A stretch of 60,667 nucleotides of DNA, filler included, from Sphacelaria rigidula (lineage: Eukaryota), in NCBI GenBank assembly GCA_964200075.2. It is 5 parts of 5 records of this genome, joined end to end, with 100 filler letters (N's around TTAATTAATTAA, not from the genome) between each part and the next. Parts side by side here need not be neighbours in the genome. Positions count along the whole stretch, not along the records: positions 48,617 to 60,667 come from CAXNAA020004189.1; 4 more parts are not named here. One strand, 5' to 3'. Positions 8,121-60,667 of the stretch are shown piece by piece. The notes under the pieces are model-generated. The model was not told where the DNA came from. It searched no databases and saw nothing but the letters and a program-made list of their open reading frames with translations. Each line of letters begins with the position of its first letter. Position 1 is the stretch's first letter. The translations under genes were made by a program, and so were the position numbers.

Positions 8121-8617
8121 GGTTTTTTTTTTTTTTTTTTCCTCTTTTTGTCNNNNNNNNNNCTTCCTCTCTTTCCTCTGTTTTTCCTTTCCCCTCCCCC
8201 CCACAAAAAACCTCAAGAGTTTTTTTTTTTTTTTTCCCAACCTGGGGCCCCACCCTTGAACCAATAGTATCAAGTGTACCGATGTCGATACACGGCCCTA
8301 CAGCATAGGGAAAAACTTGTCATACACTCGCGTGCGTCGGTAAGATTCTAGCGCGAAGTGGCGTTGCGGTATTGCAACATCGCATAATTTACACCCGTCT
8401 TCGGCGTGTGGCACATTCCTTGTGTCAACAGTTACCGCGGTATGGTATACCGAGAGCTACTCCAGTACTAGCTAATGGTCTCGGTTCCTGAGGGATTGTG
8501 GGGGTATATATCCATCCTATTCGATCCTTTTTCCTTAGGCAATACTGTATGCTCCTCATGGACACATGGTTCAAATAACTAACAACTGATCGTCTAGAAG
8601 ATTCTTGATTGTGGTTT

Positions 8618-12055: not shown

Positions 12056-12155
12056 NNNNNNNNNNNNNNNNNNNNNNNNNNNNNNNNNNNNNNNNNNNNT
12101 TAATTAATTAANNNNNNNNNNNNNNNNNNNNNNNNNNNNNNNNNNNNNNNNNNNN
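12056..12155. other. Artificial contig linker N44-TTAATTAATTAA-N44
   Basis: 12-mer with stops in all six frames, flanked by exactly 44 N on each side. Confidence 0.98.
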
Positions 12156-24209: not shown

Positions 24210-24309
24210 NNNNNNNNNNNNNNNNNNNNNNNNNNNNNNNNNNNNNNNNNNNNTTAATTAATTAANNNNNNNNNNNNNNNNNNNNNNNNNNNNNNNNNNN
24301 NNNNNNNNN
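24210..24309. other. Artificial contig linker
   Basis: Identical N44-TTAATTAATTAA-N44. Confidence 0.98.
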
Positions 24310-28813: not shown

Positions 28814-31800
28814 TCACACCTCTGGCTCGATCGAAGTAGTGTCGTCCTTTTTGAGGAAACCCTTCACCACATATTTGTCCACCGCTGGTGTTAGCGCCAG
28901 CGCTAGCGCAATGCGCAACGGCACCACCAGACGCGCAAACGTCAGGAATCCCGCTGATAATCCGAACAGCTGGGGGAAACGCGTGGGGGCGCAGGGGACA
29001 GAAGCATAGCAATCGTCGCGTTGTCGGTATCGATGGAACAGGAATGCAAATGTTGGTTCACCATTGGACTACGGTCATTTGGCAACAACATTTTTGTCGA
29101 AAGACGTAAATACCATAGATCATGAGATGTGCTCGCATCATTTGAAAGCGCAACAGGTTAATCGAAGAAATTCAATAATGATGGAATGATTTATTTAATA
29201 TCTCACATCAGCTGATTGCAACAATCCAGCCCGTGGTCAGCAGCAGCAAAAATAGAACATAATAATAAAGAAAGAAAAAAAAAAGGACAGGAATATGCGA
29301 GTGGCATACTGCTCCACTCCAATAGTTTCATGTGTGTGGGGGGGTCGAGAATGTCGCGAGAGCGAACTCGAAAGCGCGGGAATCCCGACAACACAGATTA
29401 TGAGACTCCAAATGGCCGAGTGGACCGCAGTCTACTTGAACAACGTGCACTTGATCTAGGCGAAAGTTTGCTATTACTCTCTGCCGCCTCTCACCCCTGC
29501 TCCTTCCCAACAAAGCAGTGCAGACAGACTATCTCGTGACGGCTAGGAAGTTTCACCGCCTCACAGGCAGACGTACAGATGTATTTAATGCACCGCTGCT
29601 CCCCGGTGGTGTTAAGGTGCAGCTGGAGTACACGAGTAAGGAGAATATGGGTTCGACTCCCGGTAGATGTATGTGCCCTTCGTTCTGCACAAATATTCGA
29701 TTTCGGCAGTTGAAAGCACGAGGGTATGAATGACAAAAACAGTCCATGTTCCGAGAATCGACGAGGTGCGGGAGTGCTGATCCAATCCGCGATGTCAAAG
29801 TGTAAGGCATGTACGGGGGGAGAGATTTGTTGATACCTTGAGACCACGGACTTGTCTTGAGAAAAGGGAGGAGTTGGAATGGGCTTACAAAAAGTCCACT
29901 CGGATACCCCCTCCCTGTGGTAACTTACGAACTGAACACACCTTTTCCTTCCCTTCCAACGATGACAGGTCAAGCCACTCTCCCGTACTCTCGTAGTATC
30001 CAAACACAGCAAGCGGGATGCTGATTACCCAGAAAGCCAGCTCTGTTCCTCCGTACGCGAGCGCGCCGGCAAGCCCCGCCGACTTGATCTTATCCTTCAG
30101 ATCGATCTCGGGTTCACCCGGTGGGCTCTTCACCCCCCACGCCACAAGTGCCTTGTCCAACGCCTGCTCAAGATTGAGAAGAGGATATATAGACCAGGCA
30201 ATCGACGAGATGAAGTTTGTCAGGAAGGGATCAAACGCTCCGCTGCATTCTCTGCACTACGATCACGTCGGTCATGGGCACAAGGACTGCGTCTGTCGGC
30301 CATGTCAACTGAGGATCCTCACTGTTCTTCATGACGACAACTCTCATTTTCTCCACATGTACTTGTCGATGGGCACAAATCTACACGCGCAGTGGCGCAA
30401 TCTATTGGCCAGCATTTAAAAATTACGAGGTAGAATGTAGCCTCTATAGGCCGATCCCATTTCCAAAATCTTCTCTAAATTTCCTGCCGCAAGCATTTCC
30501 TCACGTTCATTTCCCCATCTTCGGCTGCGTCGGCGGAAGCATTGCTCACATTCATTTCCCCATCTTCGGTTGCTTCGGCGGACATTCGAAGCAGTGGCGC
30601 CGACTGCTGCAACCGCTGCTCTACGCGGCACCTTCGGCTTGACCGCAGCGGTGATCGACATCCTGTACAACACAGCATTCCGGTGGTTCAGGCAGGGGAT
30701 CAGGAGATATTGGAAGGGAAACAAAGCCCACCGCTGCTCTGCGACGTTTGCCGCACGACGATCTCCATTACCCTCTTTGGCCATAAGTAGCACTGGTGGC
30801 GGTACCGTATGGCACGCGCCCGAGTGAAACTACGCCGTACGACAGTCTTTCCGTATGCTCCACAGATGTTGTGGACTCGTTCCTCTGTTTCAGGTTTTCG
30901 GGTTTCTAAACAACTATGCCGCAGGGGACGATGGAACAAACACATCAGCATGCGTTCCACGCCAACGTACTGCCATGACCTCGGCACGTTTTCATGAACG
31001 GTACGGCATGTACCCCCTGCTGCCGGAGAGTATTTCCATTCGTACTCCCGAATACCCCGCGCCTTTGCGGTGAAAGTGATGATCGTTGGACGGGTTCACG
31101 GAATTGGGAGATCGTGGCCCTGTCGGCGTAGACTGCAAGTGTGTTTGGAACACACACATGAAAAAATCGACGCGGTGTATGTAATGATAATAGCTTAGCT
31201 ACATAAATGGCACCCAGAGGAGGGGCAGCACGGTCGAGTAGCTGTCTGTATACTGTACAGACAGCGCAGGCCTGGCTGAGCTGGTGTACAGTACAGTACA
31301 GCCCAAAACACCCGGCCGACAGCGCAGGCCTGGCTGAGCTGGTGCCACAGTCGGCACAGTAGGACTTAGAGCACAGATACCCGGCACGGCTGTCGACAAT
31401 CATGTTCCCGACAGAACAGTATCATATCGTCTCGGTCGCCAGCGAGGTAAGTGTTGGGTTGGGTTTCCTCCTTCCATCAAGGAAAATAAAATAAAAAATA
31501 ACAGTATAGTATTACCCAAAACAATACGAGTAAGACAGCGCAGGCCTGGCTGAGTTGGTGTCTCCGTCGGCACAGTACTTCCTGGAGCGTAGATATTCGG
31601 CATGGCGGTCAACAACCGGTTGATACCGACAGAGCAATATTGTAATGATCTGAAGACAAAATGCGTAGGTAAATTGAAGCTGAACAAGCGCGGAGTGAAG
31701 GCGACCACCAACGCCAATCTCCTGCCTTGCATCATCTGTACACACGGTCACAACCGCCGCCAAGGCCCTGGTGCCCGCGAACAGGAGGTGTCTTCTCTGT

Positions 31801-36363: not shown

Positions 36364-36463
36364 NNNNNNNNNNNNNNNNNNNNNNNNNNNNNNNNNNNNN
36401 NNNNNNNTTAATTAATTAANNNNNNNNNNNNNNNNNNNNNNNNNNNNNNNNNNNNNNNNNNNN
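36364..36463. other. Artificial contig linker
   Basis: Identical N44-TTAATTAATTAA-N44. Confidence 0.98.
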
Positions 36464-40200: not shown

Positions 40201-41560
40201 TTAGTTGTGTGTTTCGCAGGAGAGGGAAACTATATGCGCGAATCCGTCTGCCAATGTCTTCACAGTGCTGACTCGAGGGCGGGCGATGTTGTTCCCCGCC
40301 CGCTCGGTGAAACGGTCGATGAGACGATCTTGACCGAAGTCGTTCATTTTGACTGCTTGTACGCCGGCGAGAGTGACCCGCTGGCTTCCCCAGGTTTCTC
40401 GGGGAACACTGGGTTTCGATACATTCTGGTAAGCATGGATGACTTGAGCAACTGCGTGTCCCTGGAAACAGTAGCAGTGTGCATTGCCGAATCGATTGCT
40501 GCATCTTTGCTAAATTGGTGCAAGACTTTGGGGGTGCCGCGTGTGTGGATGAGTGACACCGCCACGCATTTTTAAGAATGTGATTTTGGCCCAATGGCGA
40601 GGAGGTTTGCAGGTTGATCACCAGGTTGCGGTGGCGTATTCTCCGTGGTCTAACGGCACGTGCGAACGCATGGTCAAGAAAGTCGTTCATACTCTTCGCT
40701 CTGTCCTCCTCGAGCAGCATAAAACGAGCTCCGAGAGGGTGAACGTGTTGCCTGCGGTGCAATGGGCGCTTAATACAGCGTATCGTCGTCGTTACGATAG
40801 TACGCCGTACCACGTGATGTTTGGTCGTGCTCCTCGGACATCTTTCTCGGTGTCAACGTCTTTGTCGGCGGGGGAATGGAGTTGTGATGCTTTGAAGGAC
40901 GGTCATATCAAGCGTGCATTGCAAGGAGTCTTGGTTATACGAGAACATTTCACAGACCGCCGATGCAACTTGTTTCTGCTTTTATGCAGACTCGCAGCTT
41001 CATGTCATGGCTGACGTTAGGGACGTGCTCCAGCAAGCTTTCAATCAGTGACAATTTCACATGGCTGGTTTCGTCCGAGTGGTAACAGCACACCATCGCT
41101 CATTGTTCGTGTTGGTCGACTGGGTTGGCTTCGAACTTAAGAAGCGTACGTGGGATCCTTTCAAGGATATTTTTGAGGCCGCTCCGAATTTTCGCACGAA
41201 GGAATCGCGTAACTTGCGTGTGACAATTTCACATGGTTGGTATTGTCCGAGTGGTAAAAGCACACCATCGCTCATTGATCATGTTGGTCGACTGGGTTGG
41301 CTTCGAACTTGTGAAGCGTACATGGGAGCCTTTCAAGGATGTTTTTGAGGCCGCTCCGGGTTTTCGCACGAAGGAGTCGCGTAACTTGCGTGTGACAATT
41401 TCAAATGGCTGGTATTGTCCGAGTGGCAGAAGCAGACGATCGTTCATTGACCGTGTTGGTCGACTGGGTTGGTTTCGAACTTGAGAAGCGTACGTGGGAG
41501 CCTTTCAAGGATGCTTTTGAGGCCGCTCCGGACTTTCGCACGAAGGAGTCGCGTAACTTT
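37260..41560 (+). mobile_element. Decayed chromodomain-bearing Ty3/Gypsy retrotransposon (PR-RT-RH-INT-CHD), multiple frameshifts and stops
   Basis: PR VLDSGAHFTS; RT FGKLDLLHGYWKMPL, RVPRGVLN, LWVDDM; RH FSDASEYHWGG, ATINKEGFAI, IFTDHRNL, NAWGDLLSR; INT HMRDAGHRG, VVHFD, MSDTATHF, WSNGTCERM, STPYHVMFGRAP; CHD VLVDWVGFELEKRTWEP. The RT-RH-INT order indicates Gypsy. Confidence 0.95.
41048..41559 (+). repeat. Three tandem 172-bp units, each encoding a chromodomain-like peptide
   Basis: Units start gtgacaatttca at 41048, 41220 and 41392; ORFs at 41061, 41233 and 41405 give the same peptide in three different frames. Confidence 0.95.
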
Positions 41561-43775
41561 GTGCAAAATACCCACATCCGGCGCCTACCATCTACTACTC
41601 TTTCACCCACCTTCCAACCAGAGAAGTCTGAAGCATCGGTGAGCCTGATTGACTAAGTTAGATTAGATTGGTTGATTGAATACTGGAAGGTAGAGACAAG
41701 ATAATGAAGGAGAAGAAGACGAACTGTGCATGAGATCATTCCGAGGCAGTTGCCATTTGCCGAACTTGTCTTGTGCGAGTTGGGTTCTGTTGTTCCACCT
41801 GGCTGTTCAGCCTACGGATTGTCCACTTGCCTTGTGAGCCTGTACTTGGACTGCAAGCTGTACCTTGCTATAACAGCACCGCATCCTCATTACATTTGGC
41901 GTTTGACTAAGGAGCTTCTTCTTTTTTGCAATCGCGTTTCCCTTCTAGCACCGATTTCATCCCTGCTTGTTGAGCTGCGTGCGCGTGGCTTTTGTTGCAA
42001 TCGGTGCACTTTACGGTTTTGGGATTTTTGTAGCCAAACTTACCTAGCAAGTTTGCTAGATAGTCTGTCGTTACCTACTGCGAAAATTCCAACCTGTGCG
42101 CTACACCGCCCGTAGTACTCGTGACTCCCGGCTCTTACCGCTTGCTGCTTGCTGCAGCGCTTGACTGCACACCTGGTGCGGCGTGGGGTCAACGCGCATC
42201 GCACGCCAGCCTTGCCTTGTTGTGTGTTGTGTCTTTTTGTGACATACACACCTGTACGTTGCACTGTGGTGCACAACGTAACATCCCCTGGAGGTCCAGT
42301 ACAGGACAGTCACACGCCCAGCCATCTCTGACTCGCGTATTTGGTCTTGTTGCCCCCTTCCTTCTGGCAGGAGAAGTCTTCTGCTACAGGCTTTTTATAG
42401 AACACCAGTGCACAGGGTGCACCGTTTCTCATAGTCAGCCGTTGTTCCTGACCTGAGCTTCTTGCCAAGTCAGCAATCTTCCGCTCTCATATTTTAGTGT
42501 CAGTTGTACACGACTGTTGCATCATTTGTTCACGAAATCACTGAGCAACACCACCCGTGCTCCCAAATGGGTGACCACGGACATCTGTACACGAGCTTTG
42601 TATCCGTTCCGGCACGTCATTTTCGTCGCTTGTAGCTACATTGTTGTTATTGTTCTTTTCTGGTGTACTTCGCACAGCTGTAGAGCAGCGCTGTACATCA
42701 CTGTGATAAGTAACAATGCACAGCACAACGAGCTGAGAGCTTTCCCTCATTGACCCCCTCTCGAACAAATAATAATTAATCGTTCCGAGACAGTGTCGTC
42801 GCGATAATACTCGTTGTGATATTTCAGACCTACGTTGCGTGCTCCCTTGGAGTAGACGGCACTCGAAACCAGTGCCCCTTGCCTGTGCACTACATTTTTT
42901 CGGCACCCGCACTCAGCGTTGCCCCTGCTGCGCACAACTTCAACTTCGTTTCATATACGTACGTTGTCCCAACTCCGTTGTGTAACAAGCTTTCGCCCTG
43001 CACTACGCAGTCCGATCTCGCGGTCTACACCCCAAGCTTTGTAGAAGCTTTTGTGCTGCCCTACGCTGCACGATCTTTCGGTGCTCATCGAACACAAATT
43101 TCATTGAACACCGCCAGTCGTTTCTCAGCTTGTGCCGGGATAATACAGTTATAGTCTGCCTGTGACGCCATAACCGCAAAACGTGTGACTTCTACTACTT
43201 TTACGTACCAGCGCTGCTACAGACAACTGGATTTTGCTTTCCTTGACCCCATACGTCTGTTCTGTGCGCAATCCCGAGCTTCCGTTGATAGCTATTTCCG
43301 CCACAACTTAGATAGTTGTATTGACCAGACATCGGACATTGTTGTTACATACAGCAATCAGCTTGAATAATAATACTCGAGTTCATCCGGTTCCCAAGGT
43401 CCCCTCAGGCGCTATTAGGCTTCATTATCCCGTATTTCCGGATACAAGCTTCGGCCGTTGCACTTAGCATTTCTTGGTGTCACGCTCCTTTGATTAGAGC
43501 CCGACGACCAGACACACTGCCTCTGCCTTTTTAAGCACACAAGTTGCGTACGACTATCATGTCGCACGGACATAACGCTGGCTCTTCCCCCCACTTGGGA
43601 AGCCAATCGCTTCGTCGGACACGGAGTCGAATCACTGGCGGTCCGAAATCTTTTAATATGAGTGTCAAGTCACCTTCAACTCATCGACGCATGTATGCGA
43701 GCGCTGTTCAATCTCCGGGATCTGAAGACCAACCTTCGAGCGATACTCGTTCTTCGAGATTTGAAGACACACGAA

Positions 43776-48516: not shown

Positions 48517-48616
48517 NNNNNNNNNNNNNNNNNNNNNNNNNNNNNNNNNNNNNNNNNNNNTTAATTAATTAANNNNNNNNNNNNNNNNNNNNNNNNNNNN
48601 NNNNNNNNNNNNNNNN
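48517..48616. other. Artificial contig linker
   Basis: Identical N44-TTAATTAATTAA-N44. Confidence 0.98.
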
Positions 48617-50102
48617 CAGGAAGGGCGGTGCTGCGGCAATAACAGATCAATCCGATTTGAACTTGGGGGGTGATTTTCATCGTTGATATTCGCCGACCTC
48701 TCCCAAGGGGGTGCCCGAGCAGAAGAGCAGAAGGGCCTGTCACACGCCAGTTGAGGGGGGTGTATGAGAGATCAAACACTTGTAGAGACCTTTTTGACAT
48801 GTAGAGTGAAAAAAGATATCTATGGTGGTGACCTAACTGTTGCTAGCGTGGCGCATAGGCAATGTGTGAAGAAAAATGCCACTTCAACACCATATTTTGT
48901 ATCAACCCCATTATCTAGGATTCACTGTTGACTGCTGTTTGGTACACCAAATGGGCAGGCTCCATCTCGGTGTGATACCCGCCACACTTTTTCCGAAGTC
49001 ACGGAAAACAGTTTCAGGATCTGTTTTCGTCAAGAAAGGTTGTTGGAAAAATTTTACGGCCCGAAACTTTCCAGAGTCTTTTCTCGGCTCATAAGATGCA
49101 AGAAGCGGCCTGAGGAAGACGAAAATCCTACTTGGATGCTTCATCGAATCATAAGAAGCCGCCACGGGAGGGCACACAATCTCGAGGTTTGAAACATCGG
49201 CGATCATTTTGGTGGGTGCAGCCGTTACTTCAAGTTGAGGGTTGGAAAGAGTAAGTCGTGAAAAAACATGAGCCACAATCAACCATCTGCCTATCTCGAT
49301 GAAACCCATGAAGAACTCGACAACCATCACACCGTTTTGGCCAAGGCTACCTTCGCTGGTACGGTGTCACTCACAGCGTTCTGCGGGTATTGACGCTAGC
49401 TGCAGCTGTGTCGTGAGTTGCGCGTGGAACCCAAACCGGTTTCAGCTGTTCAGACAACGCACTGCTGCATTATCACGTCTCCGAAATCCTTGAAATCACT
49501 GCTGTGAACTGTCCGTGTGTAGGATCCAGCTTCTCGAGCATGAGTTGCCTTGGGCAAGCGTCAAATCGTTCGCCGTGCTCAGTCACTTGGAAAGAAAGCT
49601 TAATTGCAAGCGGTATTCATCTGGCATTCTGCTTGCAGGTGGTAGATAACGCGGTGTGTGTCATGCGCGTACATTGTGTAGTGTCTACTGATGGGTGCTG
49701 CCGTGTTTCTGTGATGATTTTCAATGAGTGTCGTGTCGTCTCCAAAGCTGTACGTAGGTAAAGCAATGGTCGGATTTCGCTGCGGCTAAGCTGTCGGGAT
49801 CGGGGGGAGGTGTTGCGAAGAGGGGGAAATTTTTTTTAGGCCACCGTTGAGCGTCGGCAGCACAAATTTAGCGTCATTCCTGTATGAAAAAGATACATTT
49901 ATGTGCTCTTCCGATGGAAAGTTACGATCATATACCTTATTCTGACATTGAATTTCATGTGAACTACAACGAGGGTGTGCAGGGCTTTACGCCTAGTTTA
50001 CAACAGCAGGAGTGACAATAGCTCGTATACTTTTATCAGGACGGGGAGCCATTCATCCACTTTCCCGCTGCGCGATGTGTCTGTTTTCCGACGGCATGAC
50101 AG

Positions 50103-51002
50103 AATTGAAGACTACTTCCAAACTAACTCGACGAAGGCGGGGCTGCCATCCTTCGAGATTTTTGATAGTTTGTCTCCGATCGTAACGATCGAGCAGAATT
50201 TCGACGAGCTTCTCATCCCGCCGGATCACGTGAGCCGTCGGCCATCAGATACCTACTATGTAGACGCCAAGCGAGTGCTCAGGTGCCATACGAGCGCCCA
50301 TCAGACGGCACTGCTTCAGAAAGGGCATGATGCATTCCTCGTTTGCGGAGATGTGTACCGGCGAGACGAAGTAGATAGTACGCATTACCCCGTGTTCCAT
50401 CAAATGGAGGGAGTGCGGGTGATGACAGACGCCCAGGTGAGTAAAATTTTAAAGTGGCTTCACGTTTTGTGTCGTGAGCGCAAGCCACTGTTGCAGTGGG
50501 ATACAAACAGCGTCGCATCCCGTGTACTTGATGTTGCTAATGCAGAACGTGTTTTTTGGGCCAGGAGGGAGCACAGGTGGTACACACGCTCAGCTGTGTC
50601 CGATTGAACGTCACTTCACGAACTCAAGCCATTGCTCTGTTGCAACACAGACAGCGGTGCCATCCCGTGGCTAGTGCTGATGTTGGTATCATATCGCCTT
50701 TCACTATAGGCAAGGTACGAGGCTAGAAGGCATTCAGCCTTGACTTGGATCAAGCGGCACCCATGGCCGTTTTTTGTTATACACCATACACGCCTCAGCG
50801 CTCTGAGGCAAATTTGTCACAATCCCAATGATAGGTGCCTCCAGACCTGCGCCACAGCGAAAAGAAGATCTTGGCAAATAAGGCTCTCCGGGAAGGACTG
50901 GAGGGGTTGGCAAGAAGCCTCTTCGGCAATGTGGAAATGCGTTGGGTGGATGCATATTTCCCGTTCACTGAACCATCCGCTGAACTAGAAATCTTCTTCA
51001 GG
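50103..51002 (+). CDS. FARS2: Organellar (monomeric mitochondrial/plastid-type) phenylalanyl-tRNA synthetase, two internal exons 50103-50436 and 50835-51002
   Basis: [54 protein letters not shown], then [19 protein letters not shown]. Junctions ag|A, CAG|gtgag, tag|GTG and AGG|gtaag are in phase. Confidence 0.95.
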
Positions 51003-52149
51003 GTAAGTCTATGAAAGCATGAAAGCAAACTGTAACACTTTACCTCTGGAGTCGGAGACCGTGTGCGCCTGTGCTGTATTTATCTCACATGAAAGCGTCA
51101 AAAATACTCTCACGCACCAACCAATTCATTCAAGCGCGTCTAACCAACGTTTTCTCCTAAAGATGTTTCGTACATCGCTGCTCCTTACAAACTATGATCG
51201 TGGTTAAAAAGTCCGCCATGGTGAGATGTGTAATGCCATCCCTCACGAACCAACCTCTCCAATGGTGGCCCGATCAAAGGTCGCAATGGCAATAAGCTTT
51301 GGGATCGATAGCTTGTTCACATCATGTAAGAGGGCGTGCTGCACCCCAACATTCCTTCGTGTTTCCCCTTCTCGCCGATGTAAAACGCCGCGAAACAAGA
51401 GACTAGCGGCATACCTGCTATACTTTATTGATGCCTATTTCGTCTCTGCAAGAGCTCTAGAAGCGGAACCACACCACCATAGGCATCGCTCATCAACCAT
51501 GCCACGTCCCACGTTGATGTAGAGATGTAGGGTGGTATTTTTCTTGCAAATATAACACATTGGTGTAAGCGCCGATATCGAGCATTATGTGTATGCGCTA
51601 AGTGGGAATTTAGGATGTGCGAAGAAGCTTCTTTCTATATATTTTTCGTCCACCACCAAGAACAGAGCACTCGTACTCTGACAAGACGTGCAGCACTATA
51701 TAATATTAGTTGCGTCATTTTTGTTACATGAAGGGTATGCATTGATTGCTGTCGCACATCATATATGAACTCGTTCTGTTGCGTATAATTTATAACCAGA
51801 TTGGTGCGAAAAAGGCAAAAATTGCCCATGGCTGTTGTCGCACCCTCTGCCACAATAGCTTTGCCCACCCAGCAGCTCTGGACCGTAACCGCTGGCGTCA
51901 CTCCATCATCTGTATCCTAGATTGTGGTGGGTGTTGAGTCCGTGACCTCGAGGGGCATATTGATGAAGGTGTGACCGCAGATGTTCTTCACTGTCATGTG
52001 TGCAATGACTGGATGCGTGCAAGCACTCTTTTTTACGTTCTCGGTATTTCCATGTACGATACAGTAACTTTTTAACAAACGACAAGAAAATGGGTGAAAC
52101 TATATCGTTTATATGGTAGAGTGCTTTACACCCTGGACAACACAATATA

Positions 52150-52540
52150 TTTCCAGTATATATTAGGAGGTCATGCCAGAATATGGCGATATATTGCCGA
52201 TGTGAAACACATTGGTGTCATGGGACTGCAGGCGTATTACCTGCCCAGTATATACTGGCACCATGGAATTGCCCACATATTGTCTCATCAATATATATTG
52301 GGACCGTGTGGACGAGGACATATTGCACGACCAGATGTATTGGGGCCGCATAGGTAGCAACATAGCAACATATGGGCCGGCCGATATATATTGTGGCCGT
52401 GTGGGTGACAACATTTTCGCCGACCGATATATATATTGGAGCCGTATGGGTGACAACCTATTGCCCGGTCAGTATATATTTCGGGGTAGCGTGTGCGATA
52501 ACACGTCACCCACCCAATATACACTGGGCGGGCGCATCGA
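52150..52540. repeat. Degenerate minisatellite, ~43-bp unit, roughly 8-9 copies
   Basis: Recurring ccRRtatatattggggccgtRtgggtgacaacat-like unit. Confidence 0.75.
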
Positions 52541-53088
52541 TGCCGAGTATATGCTCCACCGAAGTATTTTATTCAATTGGTGTCATCTGCCACGGCCTGG
52601 AAGCCATCCCGTCTAATCAATCTCCCATTCAATGTATTTCAAGCAGTAAATATTCTCTTTTCGGGGTGCAGGATGTTATACGAGCGTCAGTTCGAATCAT
52701 TCCGAGAAAAAAAGGAGGTGAGAGTCGTTGAGTCGCCCCTTTGAAATTCCCTGCTTCTTAGTTTCGCAGTGAAGAAGGGCGGAAAATGCGGGTCGATGTG
52801 CGCCTTTTGCTGCCCCATCTGGTCACCGATCTTGTGTTGCTTATACCCTGGACACAACTATATATCCCAATACGACACCAATACTTTCTATTGAAAACAG
52901 CACTTATACCCTGGACGTAACAGTAGTATATATATAAAATATTTCGAACGCACGAGCGTGAAGCATATTTTGTAACGAGGCGTCCACGAGATGTAATGCT
53001 GATGTTAGTGTGCAAGTCCCTCCGCACCCGCCCCGTGAGATGACTGCTCGGGCCACTGTCAATGCTAGGGGTCCGGTTCGTGGATTCG

Positions 53089-54015
53089 TGCTACATTTTG
53101 GGTAGGTGTTAACGGTGTACGTGGTCTGTCTTTTCGGAACCGTTCAAGCATTGATGATCAGTGGTATTCGCGCAGGTGGAAAATTTCTGTTTTACCGGGA
53201 GCAGTTGACGCCCCAACGGAACAGTATCTCCGCCGATGACGGAAAATATAATTGGACAGTAGCCTATACCGGCAACCCCGATTGCGCACACAAAAATTCA
53301 ACGGTAATGAGCGGCTAGATATAGAGTGCACAGTGCTGCGGGGCAGGTGAGAAACATCAAAGACGTCACATGTCAAACTGTCAGACTAAACGGTAATGGG
53401 ACGGTGGGGGGTAAACGGAGAATTTGCCGTGTCTTTCATGCTACATTTTGGGTGAGTGTTGGTGGTGTACGGGTTCTGTCTTTCGGAACTGTTCAAGCAT
53501 TTATGAGCAGTGGTAACCGCGCAGGTGGAAAATTACAGTTTTACTAGGAGCACGTGACACCGCACCTCAACAGTGTCTACCCCGATGACGGAAAATATTA
53601 TTGAAGAGTAGTCTATACCGGCAACCGCGATTGCGCAAAGAATCCAATAACATGAGCAGTTGTCGTTGCAACGGAACAACCCTTCCCCCCCCCCCTCTTT
53701 GGTGCAAAGATTATTCAACAATTCATCCCGGCAACCTCGATAGCGCACACGAAAATTCAACCCTAATGAACGTTTAAATATAAAGTGGACAGTGCTGCGG
53801 GGTTATGAGAAACATCAAAGTCGTCATAGTGTCGAACTGTCAGGTTGAAGGGCGGTGATGGGACGGTGGGGGGATACAAAATACGGATAATTTGCGGGAG
53901 GTTGCCATCCACATATCCCACACGGGATTCTTCCCATCGCTTGAAGTCCACGCGCTCTGTCTTTCCAGATACCTTCAAGCTCTGATGAGCAGTGGCCACC
54001 GCACAGGGGGAAAAA
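53089..54015. repeat. Diverged tandem repeat, 350-bp unit, about 2.3 copies
   Basis: tgctacattttggg at 53089 and 53439; gatgacggaaaatat, acagtgctgcgggg and tgggacggtggggg each occur twice; a third partial copy starts near 53950. Confidence 0.85.
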
Positions 54016-54812
54016 AATCGTTGATTCCGGAGGAACTATATTCAAGTTAATATTTCGACAACCAGATTGACACGTGCATCACACGCGCATCCACTGCAGG
54101 CAACATATCGGTACCGCACCGAACGATGGAGTAAGCTACTGTATGCTCAACCCTCGAATGTCCTTAGAGTAGTCTTTTTAGATGCTGTGTGTGTAGTCAG
54201 CAGTGGGTTGTGCTATTGGCGTCACATGCCGTCTCCGTTTGAAGACAAACCCAAGAGAATTTGACTTGCTTTTAACTGAACTTCAACGTTGCGCGGCGGT
54301 ATGAGAACACTGAGGTATACACCGACAATTTACCCGACGAGCTCCCATGTACGCGTCGCGAGGCGTCATCGAATCATCAGGCAGGTTACCGCTTAGACGG
54401 CGAGAGTAGGTCGTCTGCTGAATCGGTACAATTTCGCTTGGATGAAGTATGCATGATTCAGATGAACTACCCTTGTGGTCTAAGGGTGAAATGATATATG
54501 TTTGTCGTTGAGCGTTCTCGCCGACCGAAAATCACCGAACAGTTTAAACCGTGTTGCTTCCTTTCTTCTTTCCTTTCTAAGGTCGTTTCTTCTGTCTTTT
54601 CCTGTTTCTTTCATTCTTTCTCTTGTTGTAATATTCTGGGGGTTGTCTGCTGCTCCTTACCACAGGCTGGTTTTGCAATCAGCTAATGTGAGATAATCTA
54701 TCAATCAATCAAACCATGAACATTATGGGTACAGCGATAGTGAACATGGGGCGGGTGTCGTTTTCCAAGGGTTAGGAGTAGTGGTCACTACACAGGGAGA
54801 TACTTACATATT

Positions 54813-55830
54813 TGTGAACCGGACAGCCTTTTCAGGGCGTGATGGAATCGTCAAACAGGTGAAACAGTATCTGTTTGTCGTTGAGTACCTGTCGAGTGTA
54901 CTGGCACCTCCGCCGGGAATCAACGAACAGGTTACCGTGACACAATGGGTGGGCAGCCGTGGTGGGTGTTATGGGGCCGGTGACGCCGACACCTGCCCGA
55001 GAAAGACGGAAAGTAAACAGGTCGTTTCTATCTACTCTCTCTTATCGTTTGATCCGCATGGCCCGCATGGCGGTACTCTTTCTGTTCTTTCTATCTTCGA
55101 CATCAAATTGAAACCGCGGCTCATTCCCCACGAGAGCTTGGCAACGCAAGAATATCGCGACCCTGCAAGAAGACAGACGGGACCGGGGCTACCGCCCCGG
55201 TCCCGGACGGCTTGTATAGATATATTTTGTGTTGAGATCTCCTCGGAGATATTGAATCGATAGTACATATTTCTCATGTCACGATCGTGAAGTATCGCAT
55301 GCCAATATGTATTGGACATGCACTCGCTCCGGGAACAAGAAGTTCAACATATGTTGTTCATGCCGTGCGTGTATGTGGTGAAATATCAATATAGATTGAG
55401 TCGAAGCGACGCATTACATATTGTCGTGTGGAGACCATCCATGTATGAGCGTAATGAACACCAGAATACACGCGTAAGCAGGAGAAACAGTCTCAGGAAC
55501 GGGGTCCGCCAGTGACATGCATGAGCGGACTCGAAAGGTTTAAACCTGTGAGACTGGATCTTTGGCAACCTAGGCAACGGGGTCTCCAGTGGAAAGAGCT
55601 CGGAATAATAGAGCCACCGCATGAACACTGGTTGAGCGTTGCCAGTTCTGCCATACCGGCTCGTTCAATTGTTCTTCTTGCCTATCATCGGTCACGGCCA
55701 AATCCTTGCCTAAACCACAAGAGAGAGATTTACGCCTCGCTTTGGAGATTCTTCGGCAGCAGGGCACGACAACGTTCTCCTTCGGGACCCGTAACTCTAC
55801 CGCCTGGCCCCTAGCGAAGCCTAGTTCACA
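54813..55830 (+). repeat. Candidate 5' LTR (~1.0 kb) of the contig-5 Gypsy element
   Basis: Inverted termini TGTGAAC...GTTCACA; the right end is directly followed by tRNA-complementary sequence. Left boundary uncertain; no second LTR in the contig. Confidence 0.4.
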
Positions 55831-55831
55831 A

Positions 55832-55904
55832 TGTGGTCGGCGAAGAGATTTGAACCCGCGCGTGCAGAGCACATTGACTTACGCGTGCGGAGCACATTGA
55901 CTTA
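55832..55904 (-). other. 3' half of a tRNA-Ser(GCU)-like sequence at the PBS position (55832-55881) plus a 23-nt tandem duplication (55882-55904)
   Basis: The reverse complement TAAGTCAAT-GTGCTCTGCAC-GCGCGGG-TTCAAAT-CTCTT-CGCCGAC-C-ACA has the anticodon 3' side, long variable hairpin, T-loop and acceptor strand at eukaryotic tRNA-Ser spacing. The D-arm and 5' half are absent. Confidence 0.8.
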
Positions 55905-56659
55905 CCGGTGGCGACATCATCCGAAACAAGGAAGCAAGGAGCGCTACAGCAGGTGAAACGTATGGGTCATATGCACATTTATTCGAGTTGAGAGGGTTGT
56001 AGCGGTCATGTGTTCGGAACAGCGCGGAATTAGTCTCCTCAGTGTGCATTAGATTTCACCAGCATGGCTAGTCAAACAGCGAAGCCGCACTTATCAACCC
56101 ACCTCTCACTACCATGGTGCAAGAGGCACGGCAGTCAATCAAGCAGACCGACCTCTGGGAACGCGGTGACTCGAAGTAGCACTAACAAAAAATTTACCCA
56201 ACCTACGAATGCATTACCTTGTCATGTCATGGCCCACCATTTAGCAAGCAAAATAAAAGGGTGTATTGGACGGTCGCGCCGAGTCTCAGCTCACAAGTTG
56301 AGAGGAGTTACAAACGGCAGATAGTTCATTCTTTCACGTCTCAGAGCGCATGCAGTGGAGAAAAAGTACCAACTCTCTGATGGAAGATATCGGAGAGAAG
56401 TGGGTTTTCTGGTCAGTACAGTAACTCCTCCGGTGAGGCACCAAAACAGCCCCCAGTTGTGACGTGAAAGTACATACTAGGACGAAACAGAAGCTGAACA
56501 AGAGCAAGACAGGTAAAAAAAAGGAGTGCGGTGTATAATATAATCAGCCTCCGTACTTGGAGTTCGTTCCTAAGCAGCCTTTATAACAGCCGTCGATAAG
56601 CGATACACCGGGCACGAGTCCAAAGTCGTCGAAATGAAGCTCAAATCGTTCAGGCTCAT

Positions 56660-59600
56660 ATCATGTTGCATTTTGCGCGGTACCCCAAGGAATCGGTAAC
56701 GTTACATCCCACATTGACACATGTTCAACCTGCCGCCAGGATAAACGACAATTTTATATTCAGTGGCTGTCGATTGCTAATCGGAGCTGCCCATACTCCC
56801 TCTAAAAGGTCATCCGGTCACACTCTAGTTACATTTAGCACCGGGATATTTATATCTGCATCTTCAACTGGAACAATTGCCGTTCTACACCGAAGAGGGT
56901 GATTTGCTTGCCATACAATAGCCCCTTCAGTGAGATCGTGTGCGAAGTCTTACAAAGAGATAGCGAAAGTACATGATGAAATCATGCAGAAGCTCAAAGT
57001 GAGCAACACAAGTCGAAATATGGTGCAGTGTAGCCAGCCTTCATACTTGGAGGGTGTTCCGCAAGCAGCTTTTATAGATCAACCGTCATGTAATATCGAC
57101 GCAAAACACCGATCAAAATCTCGAACTCCAATACTGTCAACACTTCAAAGCACTCCACTATGTCATCGTTAGCGCGGTATCCGAAGGTACCTGTAACAAT
57201 ACATCCGGCTTTGGTCAGAGTCCAGGTACAAGCTAAAATAAACGATAGTGCTGTGCAGGCCCTGACGAAAGATCCACTTCAGACCTGCCTATCGTCAGCC
57301 CAAAGTTCATCCGTTCGCACCGTACTCTGAACAGCGGACATCAAACCAGTTCCAAGCAGAACTTTGGATCTTAGAAGCGTAGTCGGTTTCATTCGTTTCG
57401 ACCTCACGTTAGAAAGGAAAAACCCTGGCCGTTGAAGCATTTGTTCACGCGATTTGAGTCCCGACCACACGCCGATCGATAATTCACTGATGGGAGCATT
57501 CGGAGACATTTTAGGCTGGGAAGCTGAGACATAGTCGTTCCGAAATTCTAATGTTAGTATCAAAACTACACACAAGAGACGGAACGGGCAAAGTAACGCT
57601 ACACTCAGGGGACATGACGCATGTTCCGTTGTCAGAGTAAAAATTGCGGCGCAACATGTCCCAATATTTATCAGAAGAAAATGTGTTGTTCCTCCGCAAA
57701 CTGAGGTAGCTCTTCATGTCGACTCGGATGAACCTCCTGAAGTGACAACCACTGCAATAATTGAGCCACGGGTAGTCACGGAACAAGAGATTCAATTGTT
57801 AGACACACCCCAGGCTTTCAAAAGACTGATCGTGGCCCGAATAGTCTGTATATGGTCAGCGGTGAATAGAACAGCTATGGTTCAGGTAGCCAGTCCATTT
57901 AGGAGACACGTCCGTATTGAGCGTAACACTCTGTTAAGATACATTACACCTGCATCAGAGGTTAGAACAGCGAAAACGGTACACACAAGCCGTGCAATCG
58001 CCGAAAACAAACAAAAAACCCCTGACACGCGTCAAGAGTTAAAAAAGGCGTTCAAAAATGCCTTCACAAGATCTACATTTACGCAGGCATAGAGAGACCA
58101 AATCCCTCATCTGTGTACTAAATACTGGACAGTCTTTTCGCTCGCACCGCAGGAGTTAGGATGCTGCATGGTAGGTGAAGCCACATTTCCACTCCAGCCG
58201 GGTACACAACCAGTTGACAGACCGCCCTACATGGCCAACCCAAGCATAAAATATGGCAACACATGCATACACGAAATGGAAAGAGACGGTATCATCGAGC
58301 AAAGAGCTTGCCCTTGAGGCCTTGCGGTAACTGTTGTCGCTTAAAGCGATGGTACGGCTCGACTTTGCGTTGACGATAGGTCTACACTCAACTAACCTCT
58401 GGTACGTAAGTCATGGTCGATGCCTCAAATGGAATCTCATATTGATACAGTGTCGGGAGCAAAATACATCTCTGTCTTGAATGTGCAGAGTGCATTCCAC
58501 CAAATCCCTATAGCGGAAGAAGAAGAGGAGAAAAAAGCCTTCGTCACAGGCGAAGGTAAATGGGTATTCAATCGCCTCCCATTCGGATCAGCGTCACCCC
58601 CATTTATTTCACGAATAATGGCTCTCACCTTCTCATCCTTTTAACCGGAAAGCGACCTCCTGGTGTACATGAACGATTTAATCGCATGTTCTTCTTCGTG
58701 GGAAAGCCACCTAACTCTACTTGAGGACATGATCAAGGCACTGCAAGCAGCGGGCCTCTCCCTGAAACCGCAAAAGCACAGTTTGGACGAAAGGAAATTG
58801 AATACCTAGGACACACTCTGTCAGCAGACGGTATCAAATCAAGTGACGACCGTATTAAAGAAATACTGGACTTACCCAGACTAATCAACATCAAGCAGAT
58901 CGCTCATTGCTCGGCATGGTCGATTTTGTGCGAAACTTAATCCCAAATGTGGCCGAGATCACCGTACCCTTGTTTGATCTCACAAAGGAAGACGCGGTCA
59001 AAGAAGTAGCAAAACGTTGGAAGGCAGAACATGACGAATCTCTCGCGGACGTGAAAGGACTTTTGACGACTGCCCCAGTATTGTACTTCCCTGACTTCTC
59101 CAAGCGAGTTTTGGTCCAAGTTGATGTCCAGCAATGAGGGAGTAGAAGCCCACTTATGGCAGAAGAAAGGCGACGACCGAACGATCATAGCTTATTTCAG
59201 ACAACGCTTTAACCCTGCCCAAAAGCACTATTCTGCGACCCTCAAGGAATGTTACGCCGATATTCTAGCGATCCAATACTGAAAACACTTATTACGGGGC
59301 AGAATTTTTACTAGCGTGGCAGATCATGCAGCGCTGGGTTACCTGTATACGATGCAAGATACAAGCAACATCCTAACCAGATGGTCAATTGCTTTGCAGT
59401 CATATGACTTCACAGTACAGCATAAACCGGGAAAGCTAAAAAACATACCCGACACTCTATGGCGACTCTTCAAATTCGAGCGACGGCGAGAGGGTGACGT
59501 CAAACGCCTACTCGGTCTGATTTGTCGATCTTGCCGGAAGATCCCGCATTACACTCGGGAAAACCGCACCAGCCATTTCAATTATCGGCGGATAAACTGG

Positions 59601-60230
59601 ATGAACTAAGCCAGTACAAAGCGACAGAGAGTGGTTGGCAGTAAAGTCGGTCTACAACAGCGCAACGAATATCTTCATGTCTGTAGACAAGCAGAAATTG
59701 CAAGCAGAACAGGCAAAATAATATGGACCCTACATTCAGTATTTGACTGATGGCACTGCACCAATTCCGGAAAAAAAACGCTGGCAACCGTGTCCTACTA
59801 TTCAGTCCGAGATAATATTTGGTACAGATTTTATTTGCCAGGGCATCTCCGGAAAAGAGGCACCTTTTGTGATCAGCTAGTCTTACCCACAGCTCTAATA
59901 AGGTTCGTACTACACTCGTATCACGGCCATGCGTTATCCGGAGGCCACCTCGGCTTCAAACCGACTCACGATAAGGTCAGGGTGAAGTATTGTTGGCCGT
60001 CAGTAAGCCGGGACGTACGAAATAGATGTGGAGACTGGCAGGCTTGCCATATACCTGTGGAAAGGCTATTCCAACGTGTATCGATGGACTTGGTCGAATA
60101 TTAGACGATTTCAAAATCTTCAGCTGGAGTGCCAGGCAAGTACGTCATGTCCGTGATGGATCGTTTGACACCACGTTATGCAGTTTTTTTCCCGATCCCA
60201 AACAAGTCAGCCGTTACAGTTATGGGGGTG
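56660..60230 (+). mobile_element. Decayed Ty3/Gypsy pol (PR-like, RT, RNase H, integrase N-terminus), a different family from 37260-41560
   Basis: RT RLCVDDR, ISVLNVQSAFHQIPI, AFVT..RLPFG, LVYMND(YMDD); LLTTAPVLYFPDFSK; RH HYSATLKEC, DHAAL..LTRWSIALQSYDFTVQHKPG; INT HGHALSGGHLGF..W..C..C and FQRVSMDLVE; truncated at ~60225. Confidence 0.93.
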
Positions 60231-60667
60231 AATGGGGCCCGATTTTGGGCACTATATATCTGTAAAATGGAACGACCACGATCCACTGCGGAAAAAATGA
60301 CCCGTAATCGAGCCAATCGTAGCAATCACAAATACAGACGTCATCTCCGAATGACGATCTCGCTAATATGAAATGAACTCTAACTTGAGTACATCCTTAC
60401 AAGCCTGCGAGTGGTCGGTGTCGCGGATATGTAGTTGCTCCAGCGACTGCACTGATATATTGTTGTGTGCTTGTATTGTTTAGCTGTTGCACTCGGGAAG
60501 CACACGCGCACTACGTTCCACCCCACATCCACCGTCCTTCTTAACATCAGCAGTCAAGAACACGAAAAGTGGCAGTAGTTGCGGGCGTCACAACCCCACT
60601 TGACCCTTTTACTCACATACCGCAAAAACGAAGCAGCAGAGAATATTCGAACAATTAGCACAAGTGT

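Follow-up and report, generated by a model that had tools for sequence, protein, structure and literature searches.

A Contiguous Complement of the Serine tRNA 3′ Half at the Candidate Primer-Binding Site of a Decayed Ty3/Gypsy Family in Sphacelaria rigidula

Introduction

As described in the part of PMC8599865 drawn upon here, reverse transcriptase (RT) copies the first 18 bases of the primer tRNA during plus-strand strong-stop synthesis and, as a rule, comes to a halt at m1A58, m5Um54 constituting a second stop. Departures from this rule are documented in HIV-1, where 44 defective proviruses carry tRNA-Lys3 inserts of 7–54 nt directly after the primer-binding site (PBS); the sections of PMC12657518 available to us ascribe these to a deferred second-strand transfer past m1A58. 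In the excerpts of both sources used here (PMC8599865, PMC12657518), such read-through of the primer tRNA appears as a dead end that yields defective proviruses.

Several LTR retrotransposons provide further points of comparison. Among Ty3/Gypsy elements, the 17.6 group of Drosophila errantiviruses is known to employ tRNA-Ser, as given in the consulted part of PMC3383448. The sites of copia, Ty5 and the fungal Copia/Helenus elements pair with the 5′ part of a tRNA, such that the 3′ end of the primer lies in the anticodon loop (PMC5371799 and PMC10886601, each as far as excerpted here). The same portion of PMC10886601 describes a tRNA-like sequence within the LTRs of Helenus. In Ty1 and Ty3, the T arm of the primer also pairs with the element RNA, through separate boxes, which in Ty3 are situated ~4.8 kb away, in U3 (PMC5371799).

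Here, we describe a locus of Sphacelaria rigidula at which an apparent PBS for tRNA-Ser continues, contiguously and in register, well beyond the 18 nt of the canonical site. In the literature searched, we found neither an LTR-retrotransposon family with a contiguous ~50-nt tRNA complement at its PBS nor any account of brown-algal primer sites.

Sequences and Methods

The window, i.e., the whole stretch of DNA analyzed, is a 60,667-nt joined sequence from the Sphacelaria rigidula assembly GCA_964200075.2, in which the part bearing the element (CAXNAA020004189.1) occupies positions 48,617–60,667. It stops at 60667, within the integrase, and the 3′ LTR of the element falls beyond it. Logan contigs from four runs (X1–X4) were aligned to positions 54000–58000 of the window at 80% likeness. 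Likeness to tRNAs was judged solely against tool-derived tRNAs, namely those called by ARAGORN in GTDB and metagenome contigs. The GTDB loci were found by scanning with a 23-nt pattern derived from the window, which returned two matches, both archaeal.

The window contains 362 N, at 8153–8162, 12056–12155, 24210–24309, 36364–36463 and 48517–48616; at four of these five places, the N form paired blocks of 44 nt, which recur at intervals of about 12,154 nt and appear to be masked or withheld letters rather than biology. Other repeats in the window include a satellite-like 172-nt unit present three times in tandem at 41048–41563 (87–92% alike), local direct repeats of 150–200 nt at 53085–54014 (82–84% alike and 350–460 nt apart), and two distant segments, 54599–54710 and 29184–29293, that match each other in inverted orientation over 116 nt (74% identity).

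Results

A Repeat Terminus Adjacent to the tRNA Complement

The aligned contigs support position 55830 as a repeat terminus that behaves as an LTR end. Among the loose ends listed, one at 55830 is found in X2 only, where 38 contigs leave the window at this position into unlike sequence with a median length of 255 nt. Because the flanks that these contigs enter are also mutually unlike (agreement 0.37), the position is best understood as the end of a repeat. Other contigs, diverged copies included, bridge 55830 straight into the leader, and entire short contigs stop at 55815–55823. Summed contig depth, which by the aligner's own warning is not equivalent to copy number, drops about two-fold from the bin 55742–55875 to the next in X1, X2 and X3, and does not do so in X4.

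The repeat that ends here is probably an LTR. Its candidate 5′ copy spans 54813–55830 (+ strand), with an end (...GTTCACA) supported by the contigs and an uncertain start, for which the candidate is the motif TGTGAAC at 54813, related to the terminal GTTCACA as its inverted complement. This start remains a guess because the contig numbers climb only from about 55450. No second copy of the LTR was found within the window. Just upstream of the candidate LTR, 54392–54712 constitutes a separate and very abundant repeat with a TCAA-type microsatellite. Loose ends are seen before 54392 (71–74 contigs in X1–X3) and behind 54712 (102 contigs apiece in X1, X2 and X3), and the peak summed depth of the stretch lies in the bin 54670–54803.

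In retroviral replication, the first base joined to the primer becomes the LTR end. With the repeat terminating at 55830 and a single base left before the tRNA complement, the annealed 3′ end of the primer is placed at 55832. Reasoning from this terminus, we infer that the block starting at 55832 would be the working PBS of the family for tRNA-Ser. An earlier note on this DNA had proposed that a CA-ending LTR end directly precedes the tRNA complement; this stands, with 55830 acting as the terminus and followed by the usual one-base spacer. The converse possibility which it had raised, that 55830 might not be an LTR end, is not what we observed, as far as the contig data reach.

Antisense Homology to the 3′ Half of a Serine tRNA

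Inspection of the sequence between 55500 and 56300 showed that ...GTTCACA, ending at 55830, and a single A are followed by a 50-nt stretch, 55832–55881 (+ strand), which on sequence comparison is complementary to a long-variable-arm serine tRNA over its 3′ part. The reverse complement of 55831–55920 is identical at 29 of 30 positions to the tRNA-Ser(tga) called by ARAGORN at 1175–1259 (− strand) of an archaeal contig (L011), in a match that extends from the end of the anticodon stem across the complete variable arm and through both T stem and T loop. This alignment has a score of 55, compared to a maximum of 23 among shuffles (n = 500). ARAGORN called a tRNA-Ser gene in L011 and none in L012, the other of the two archaeal GTDB loci. 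The T arm and acceptor strand of the block further match a 92-nt long-arm tRNA from a metagenome contig (L005) at 22 of 25 positions. The L005 tRNA (68–159) has an encoded CCA and is labeled tRNA-Ile(aat) by ARAGORN, an odd anticodon for a tRNA with a long variable arm.

With the tRNA numbering set by the ARAGORN anticodon position in L011, the homology of the block runs in register from tRNA position 76 down to position 36, which is a U (T in DNA); in the tRNA sense, nothing tRNA-like precedes position 36. The block can be divided into two parts. The first 18 nt (55832–55849, + strand) are the equivalent of a canonical PBS, being the complement of tRNA positions 76 to 59 in the register against L011 and L005, with TGT replacing TGG. 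Here, a complement of the tRNA 3′ end starts at 55832 with a single spacer base (55831) after the CA terminus, as is seen in a PBS. The remaining 32 nt (55850–55881, + strand), contiguous and in register with the first part, are the complement of positions 58 to 36, taking in the T loop and T stem, the variable arm, the anticodon stem's 3′ strand and positions 38–36. The tRNA complement is hence uninterrupted past position 58, as is typical of a read-through insert.

The remainder of a tRNA was not recovered. The best local scores for a 5′ tRNA half after the block are 10–14, i.e., at the shuffle level of ~13; ARAGORN found no tRNA gene in the window (0), and Rfam returned no tRNA match in 55600–56100 at E ≤ 10. 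The lack of an ARAGORN gene or an Rfam tRNA match is as expected, since only half a tRNA is present. The Rfam search gave just two sub-threshold lncRNA matches (E ~0.7–0.8), which we read as chance.

The block departs from a perfect complement at a few positions. Compared with the textbook CCA, rather than a host tRNA, two of the three bases of the CCA complement agree, with TGT at 55832–55834 instead of TGG. The base at the discriminator-complement position is G, whereas eukaryotic tRNA-Ser generally has G73, which predicts a C. The implied 3′ strand of the T stem, CTCTT, would face GCGGG with one C–U mismatch and two G–U pairs. In all, the 50-nt block of the window copy has 2–3 apparent departures, i.e., no extra conservation, and these are compatible, together with the difference at one of 23 positions between the tandem units described below, with neutral decay. 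To our knowledge, among tRNAs with long variable arms, U36 occurs under the standard code only in Ser(GCU). The long variable arm and U36 of the block thus suggest Ser(GCU) as the primer isoacceptor, an identification that comes from the genetic code rather than from a match to a host gene. Two further claims of the earlier note agree with these results: that ~50 nt complement the 3′ half of a tRNA-Ser up to anticodon position 36, as seen in the register and the 29/30 match to the L011 tRNA-Ser, and that the CCA complement is imperfect, being TGT followed by G.

A Tandem Duplication Ending with the tRNA Homology

The last 23 nt of the block are repeated in tandem, as the earlier note had stated and TRF now corroborates (55859–55905, period 23, 2.0 copies, 95% matches, score 87). 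The two units, at 55859–55881 and 55882–55904 (+ strand), differ at one of 23 positions (A/G), and the second represents an extra copy of tRNA positions ~50 to 36. The right edge of the duplication is the same base at which the tRNA homology ends. It had been stressed previously that both copies stop at the same base; while this is partly inherent in any tandem duplication, the coincidence of the right edge with the end of the tRNA homology stands.

The units are followed by CCGG and then TGGCGAC (55905–55915, with TGGCGAC at 55909–55915, + strand, by direct reading of the sequence). The second TGGCGAC claimed in the note is therefore present, but the motif is no more frequent in the window than chance predicts (8 observed versus 8.55 expected), and no tRNA match extending beyond 7 nt was found for it. 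In RNA folding, it is able to pair with 55836–55842; the fold of 55826–55925 is no better than those of shuffles (z −1.07). The CCGG–TGGCGAC segment might be the landing site of an aberrant transfer, the relic of a PBS start, or chance.

The Downstream Gypsy Pol and the Leader

Downstream on the same strand lies a decayed Ty3/Gypsy pol (58093–60368, + strand), detected through matches to the Pfam domains RVT_1 (58396–58641, + strand; 4.4e-07), RT_RNaseH (59067–59606, + strand; 2.4e-08 and 3.6e-05, with RT_RNaseH_2 also matching) and Integrase_H2C2 (59751–60101, + strand; 6.4e-10). The order of RT, RNase H and integrase zinc-binding domain is that of Ty3/Gypsy, and the frames are broken with many stops. 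The same-strand Gypsy pol previously reported is thus real, though badly broken. In the leader and gag-side region, the frames 56600–56899 and 57535–58089 matched no Pfam family.

The contigs tend to break at ~56796–56858 and the summed depth is ~10-fold lower after 56813, so that the putative link of the LTR, PBS and leader to the pol at 58093–60368 is one of position and strand. X1, X2 and X3 each contain a contig in which 56101 is connected to 57459 through 38 other letters. The breaks and this joint suggest the presence of deletion derivatives, or of non-autonomous elements with the LTR, primer site and leader in common. The module of LTR, PBS and leader would be much more abundant than the pol part, and non-autonomous derivatives are perhaps the cause.

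A Large, Diverged Family with a Colinear Block

The region belongs to a large and diverged family. In total, 3523 (X1), 3677 (X2), 3352 (X3) and 1107 (X4) contigs aligned to it; those of X1 are distributed over likeness classes of ≥99% (142), 95–99% (510), 90–95% (1286) and <90% (1585). Five listed pieces bridge the block, reaching from 55830 to at least 55960, with 13–17% other letters relative to the window: X2 record 8 (55448–55960, net −3 nt, 5 gaps), X2 record 9 (55702–56101, net −5 nt, 15 gaps), X4 record 23 (55706–55961, net −4 nt, 8 gaps), X4 record 24 (55737–55999, net +1 nt, 5 gaps), and X1 record 2, which equals X3 record 16 from the same sample (55754–56147, net −19 nt, 21 gaps). 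Colinearity here refers to the lengths and gap counts of these five pieces among more than 12,000, and pieces from different runs may represent one genomic copy.

As the net changes range only from +1 to −19 nt, none of the bridging pieces can lack the 77-nt block. An ordinary PBS of at most 18 nt in other family members, named in the earlier note as an outcome that would speak against its proposal, was thus not encountered among them. Likewise, the net changes of +1 to −5 nt in four of the five make the loss of a 23-nt unit implausible in these, while the fifth (X1 record 2, −19 nt) is ambiguous with respect to the second unit. No skip of 23 nt is seen among the joints or deletions listed. 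Given that the block is colinear through diverged pieces, it would predate their divergence and have been spread by retrotransposition; the block, with both 23-nt units, is probably ancestral to the family.

The search for copies in other sequences was negative. The window holds no other LTR or pol copies; a pattern scan of metagenomes gave 10 loci, all chance or unrelated tRNA-like matches, and 0 copies of the element; two DNA patterns gave 0 and 0 matches in viral contigs, where two protein queries returned no confirmed relative; and the GTDB contigs held only the two archaeal loci of the tRNA-Ser type, with no copy of the element.

Discussion

Comparison with Described Primer Sites

The closest parallel to this locus is with the read-through inserts of HIV-1 (PMC12657518, in the part consulted). 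As in these, the primer complement follows U5, continues in register past the 18-nt PBS, and then gives way to non-tRNA sequence; its 32 nt beyond the PBS fall within the 7–54 nt seen in HIV-1. However, whereas the HIV-1 inserts of that account are found in single, defective, deleted proviruses, the one described here goes back to the ancestor of a diverged family represented by thousands of contigs. It differs further from the HIV-1 case as presented there in having an extra 23-nt partial copy, in residing in an algal Ty3/Gypsy element, and in deriving from tRNA-Ser.

With the 17.6 group, the element shares the Ty3/Gypsy pol order and a PBS for the 3′ end of tRNA-Ser beside the 5′ LTR (PMC3383448, in the excerpt used). 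The hosts of that group belong to a different kingdom than that of this algal element. We know of no complementarity extending to the anticodon loop in 17.6-group elements.

As in copia, Ty5 and the fungal Copia/Helenus elements, the complement ends in the anticodon loop, such that a cleaved tRNA is a possible primer (PMC5371799 and PMC10886601, in the parts at hand). Those elements, however, use the tRNA's 5′ part with a primer that ends in the anticodon loop, while the pairing here involves the acceptor 3′ end and the 3′ half. The locus therefore does not fit half-tRNA priming of the copia/Ty5 type: complementarity begins at the acceptor's 3′ end, and no complement of a 5′ half is present. 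While the T arm of the primer is likewise paired in Ty1 and Ty3, their extra contacts are separate boxes as opposed to the contiguous in-register copy found here (PMC5371799). An arrangement of the TRIMp3/Helenus type, with a tRNA-like sequence in the LTR that serves as a promoter (PMC10886601, as far as drawn upon), does not fit either, the block being antisense and lying outside the 55830 terminus.

Origin of the Extended Site

The reading we favor, and consider moderately probable, is that the block is the working PBS of a high-copy, decayed Ty3/Gypsy family primed by tRNA-Ser, which was extended by an inherited copy of primer read-through. On this proposal, plus-strand strong-stop synthesis in an ancestor would have passed the 18 primer bases without halting. 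RT would have continued past A58 and across the T and variable arms and the anticodon stem's 3′ strand, reaching position 36 before a deferred plus-strand transfer to the minus strand. The over-long product might then have been established in both strands through repair or replication and passed on, so that the element RNA thereafter carried 50 contiguous bases complementary to the primer. Once the extension was part of the RNA genome, read-through to position 36 would give a plus strand fully complementary to the minus strand, and further read-through up to this position would consequently be harmless; a longer homology would also be available to plus-strand transfer. These two effects would explain how such a copy founded a large family, if the extended site did confer any benefit. 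The 23-nt duplication may stem from the same aberrant transfer, through a backward jump along the tRNA template, or from later slippage, and would in either case be older than the divergence of the copies seen.

The earlier note's interpretation is partly supported by this: read-through past A58 is plausible and is a documented retroviral event in the consulted parts of PMC12657518 and PMC8599865. A stop at a modified base of the anticodon loop, habitual priming from a 3′ half cleaved at the anticodon, and renewal of the site with every cycle did not gain such support. The family size is what suggests that an insert-bearing copy could replicate, the HIV-1 inserts being marks of deleted, defective proviruses. 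What would be new here is the fixation of a read-through product in a replicating Ty3/Gypsy family, a claim that we regard as reasonably likely.

The main competitor of an inherited read-through copy is that long priming is routine: either the primer is a 3′ half of tRNA-Ser(GCU) released by anticodon cleavage (positions 36–76), or RT routinely reads to a fixed stop at position 36. Then, each cycle would copy 41 tRNA bases plus CCA and restore them to the element, and an end-of-template jump would have produced the 23-nt repeat. This would account for the tRNA homology and the duplicated unit ending on the same base, position 36, with nothing tRNA-like thereafter, a coincidence of edges that random 23-nt slippage within ~100 nt would produce in a few per cent of cases. 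The hard stops expected for this tRNA are a copy ending at 38, due to the modification at position 37, or at 33, due to m3C32, and not at 36. A free 5′ end thus suits position 36 better than such stops do. Against this, one historical read-through and one duplication would yield identical DNA, and the block of the window copy is without extra conservation, neutral decay being sufficient. Moreover, the HIV inserts formed on full-length tRNA end at many positions (7–54 nt; PMC12657518, in the part used), and 3′-truncated tRNA primers are reported, in the accessible portions of PMC5371799 and PMC10886601, for Copia lineages only, which use the other tRNA half. Hence, we hold routine long priming to be unlikely, though it is the most credible of the alternatives.

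Two other readings dissociate the block from priming. One could place the true PBS at the TGG-initiated site at 55909, with the 77-nt tRNA-Ser block as inert cargo or a part of U5. Although TGGCGAC looks canonical and has an intact TGG, a PBS at this point would set the LTR end at ~55907, yet the contigs diverge at 55830, and the 7-mer is at chance frequency with no tRNA match beyond its 7 nt; we therefore give this arrangement a low probability. Still lower is that of stray tRNA material, i.e., a truncated pseudogene or SINE fragment that came to lie antisense beside a repeat end without any relation to priming. The T arm does contain a B-box-like motif common to tRNA-derived repeats, and the imperfect CCA complement would be in keeping with such an origin. 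However, the fragment begins at the very 3′ end of the tRNA, one base from the CA terminus, with the orientation and spacing of a PBS, and the repeat terminus sits where a primer annealed at 55832 would place it. Furthermore, the A-box half is absent, no cloverleaf gene is recognized (ARAGORN 0, Rfam none, 5′-half scores at the shuffle level), and diverged family copies are colinear across the block. The stray pseudogene or SINE, which the earlier note had envisaged as the outcome that would overturn its proposal, is accordingly not what the five diverged, colinear pieces point to.

Implications

If the family indeed carries a read-through product, then an accident otherwise regarded as a dead end would have become heritable, and the primer site would have gained 50 instead of 18 complementary bases while becoming immune to further read-through. 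This raises the questions of whether the host tRNA-Ser is without an effective stop at position 58, whether 3′ tRNA halves act as primers, and how tRNA sequences enter retroelements. According to an old idea, tRNA-derived SINEs originated as strong-stop DNA, and the entry of tRNA sequence into retroelements bears on this strong-stop origin. If, on the other hand, the less likely routine long priming were true, it would add a third mode to those known for tRNA priming, namely the use of the native 3′ end with an 18-nt stop and the 5′-half priming of copia and Ty5. It would also link stress-induced tRNA halves to retrotransposition.
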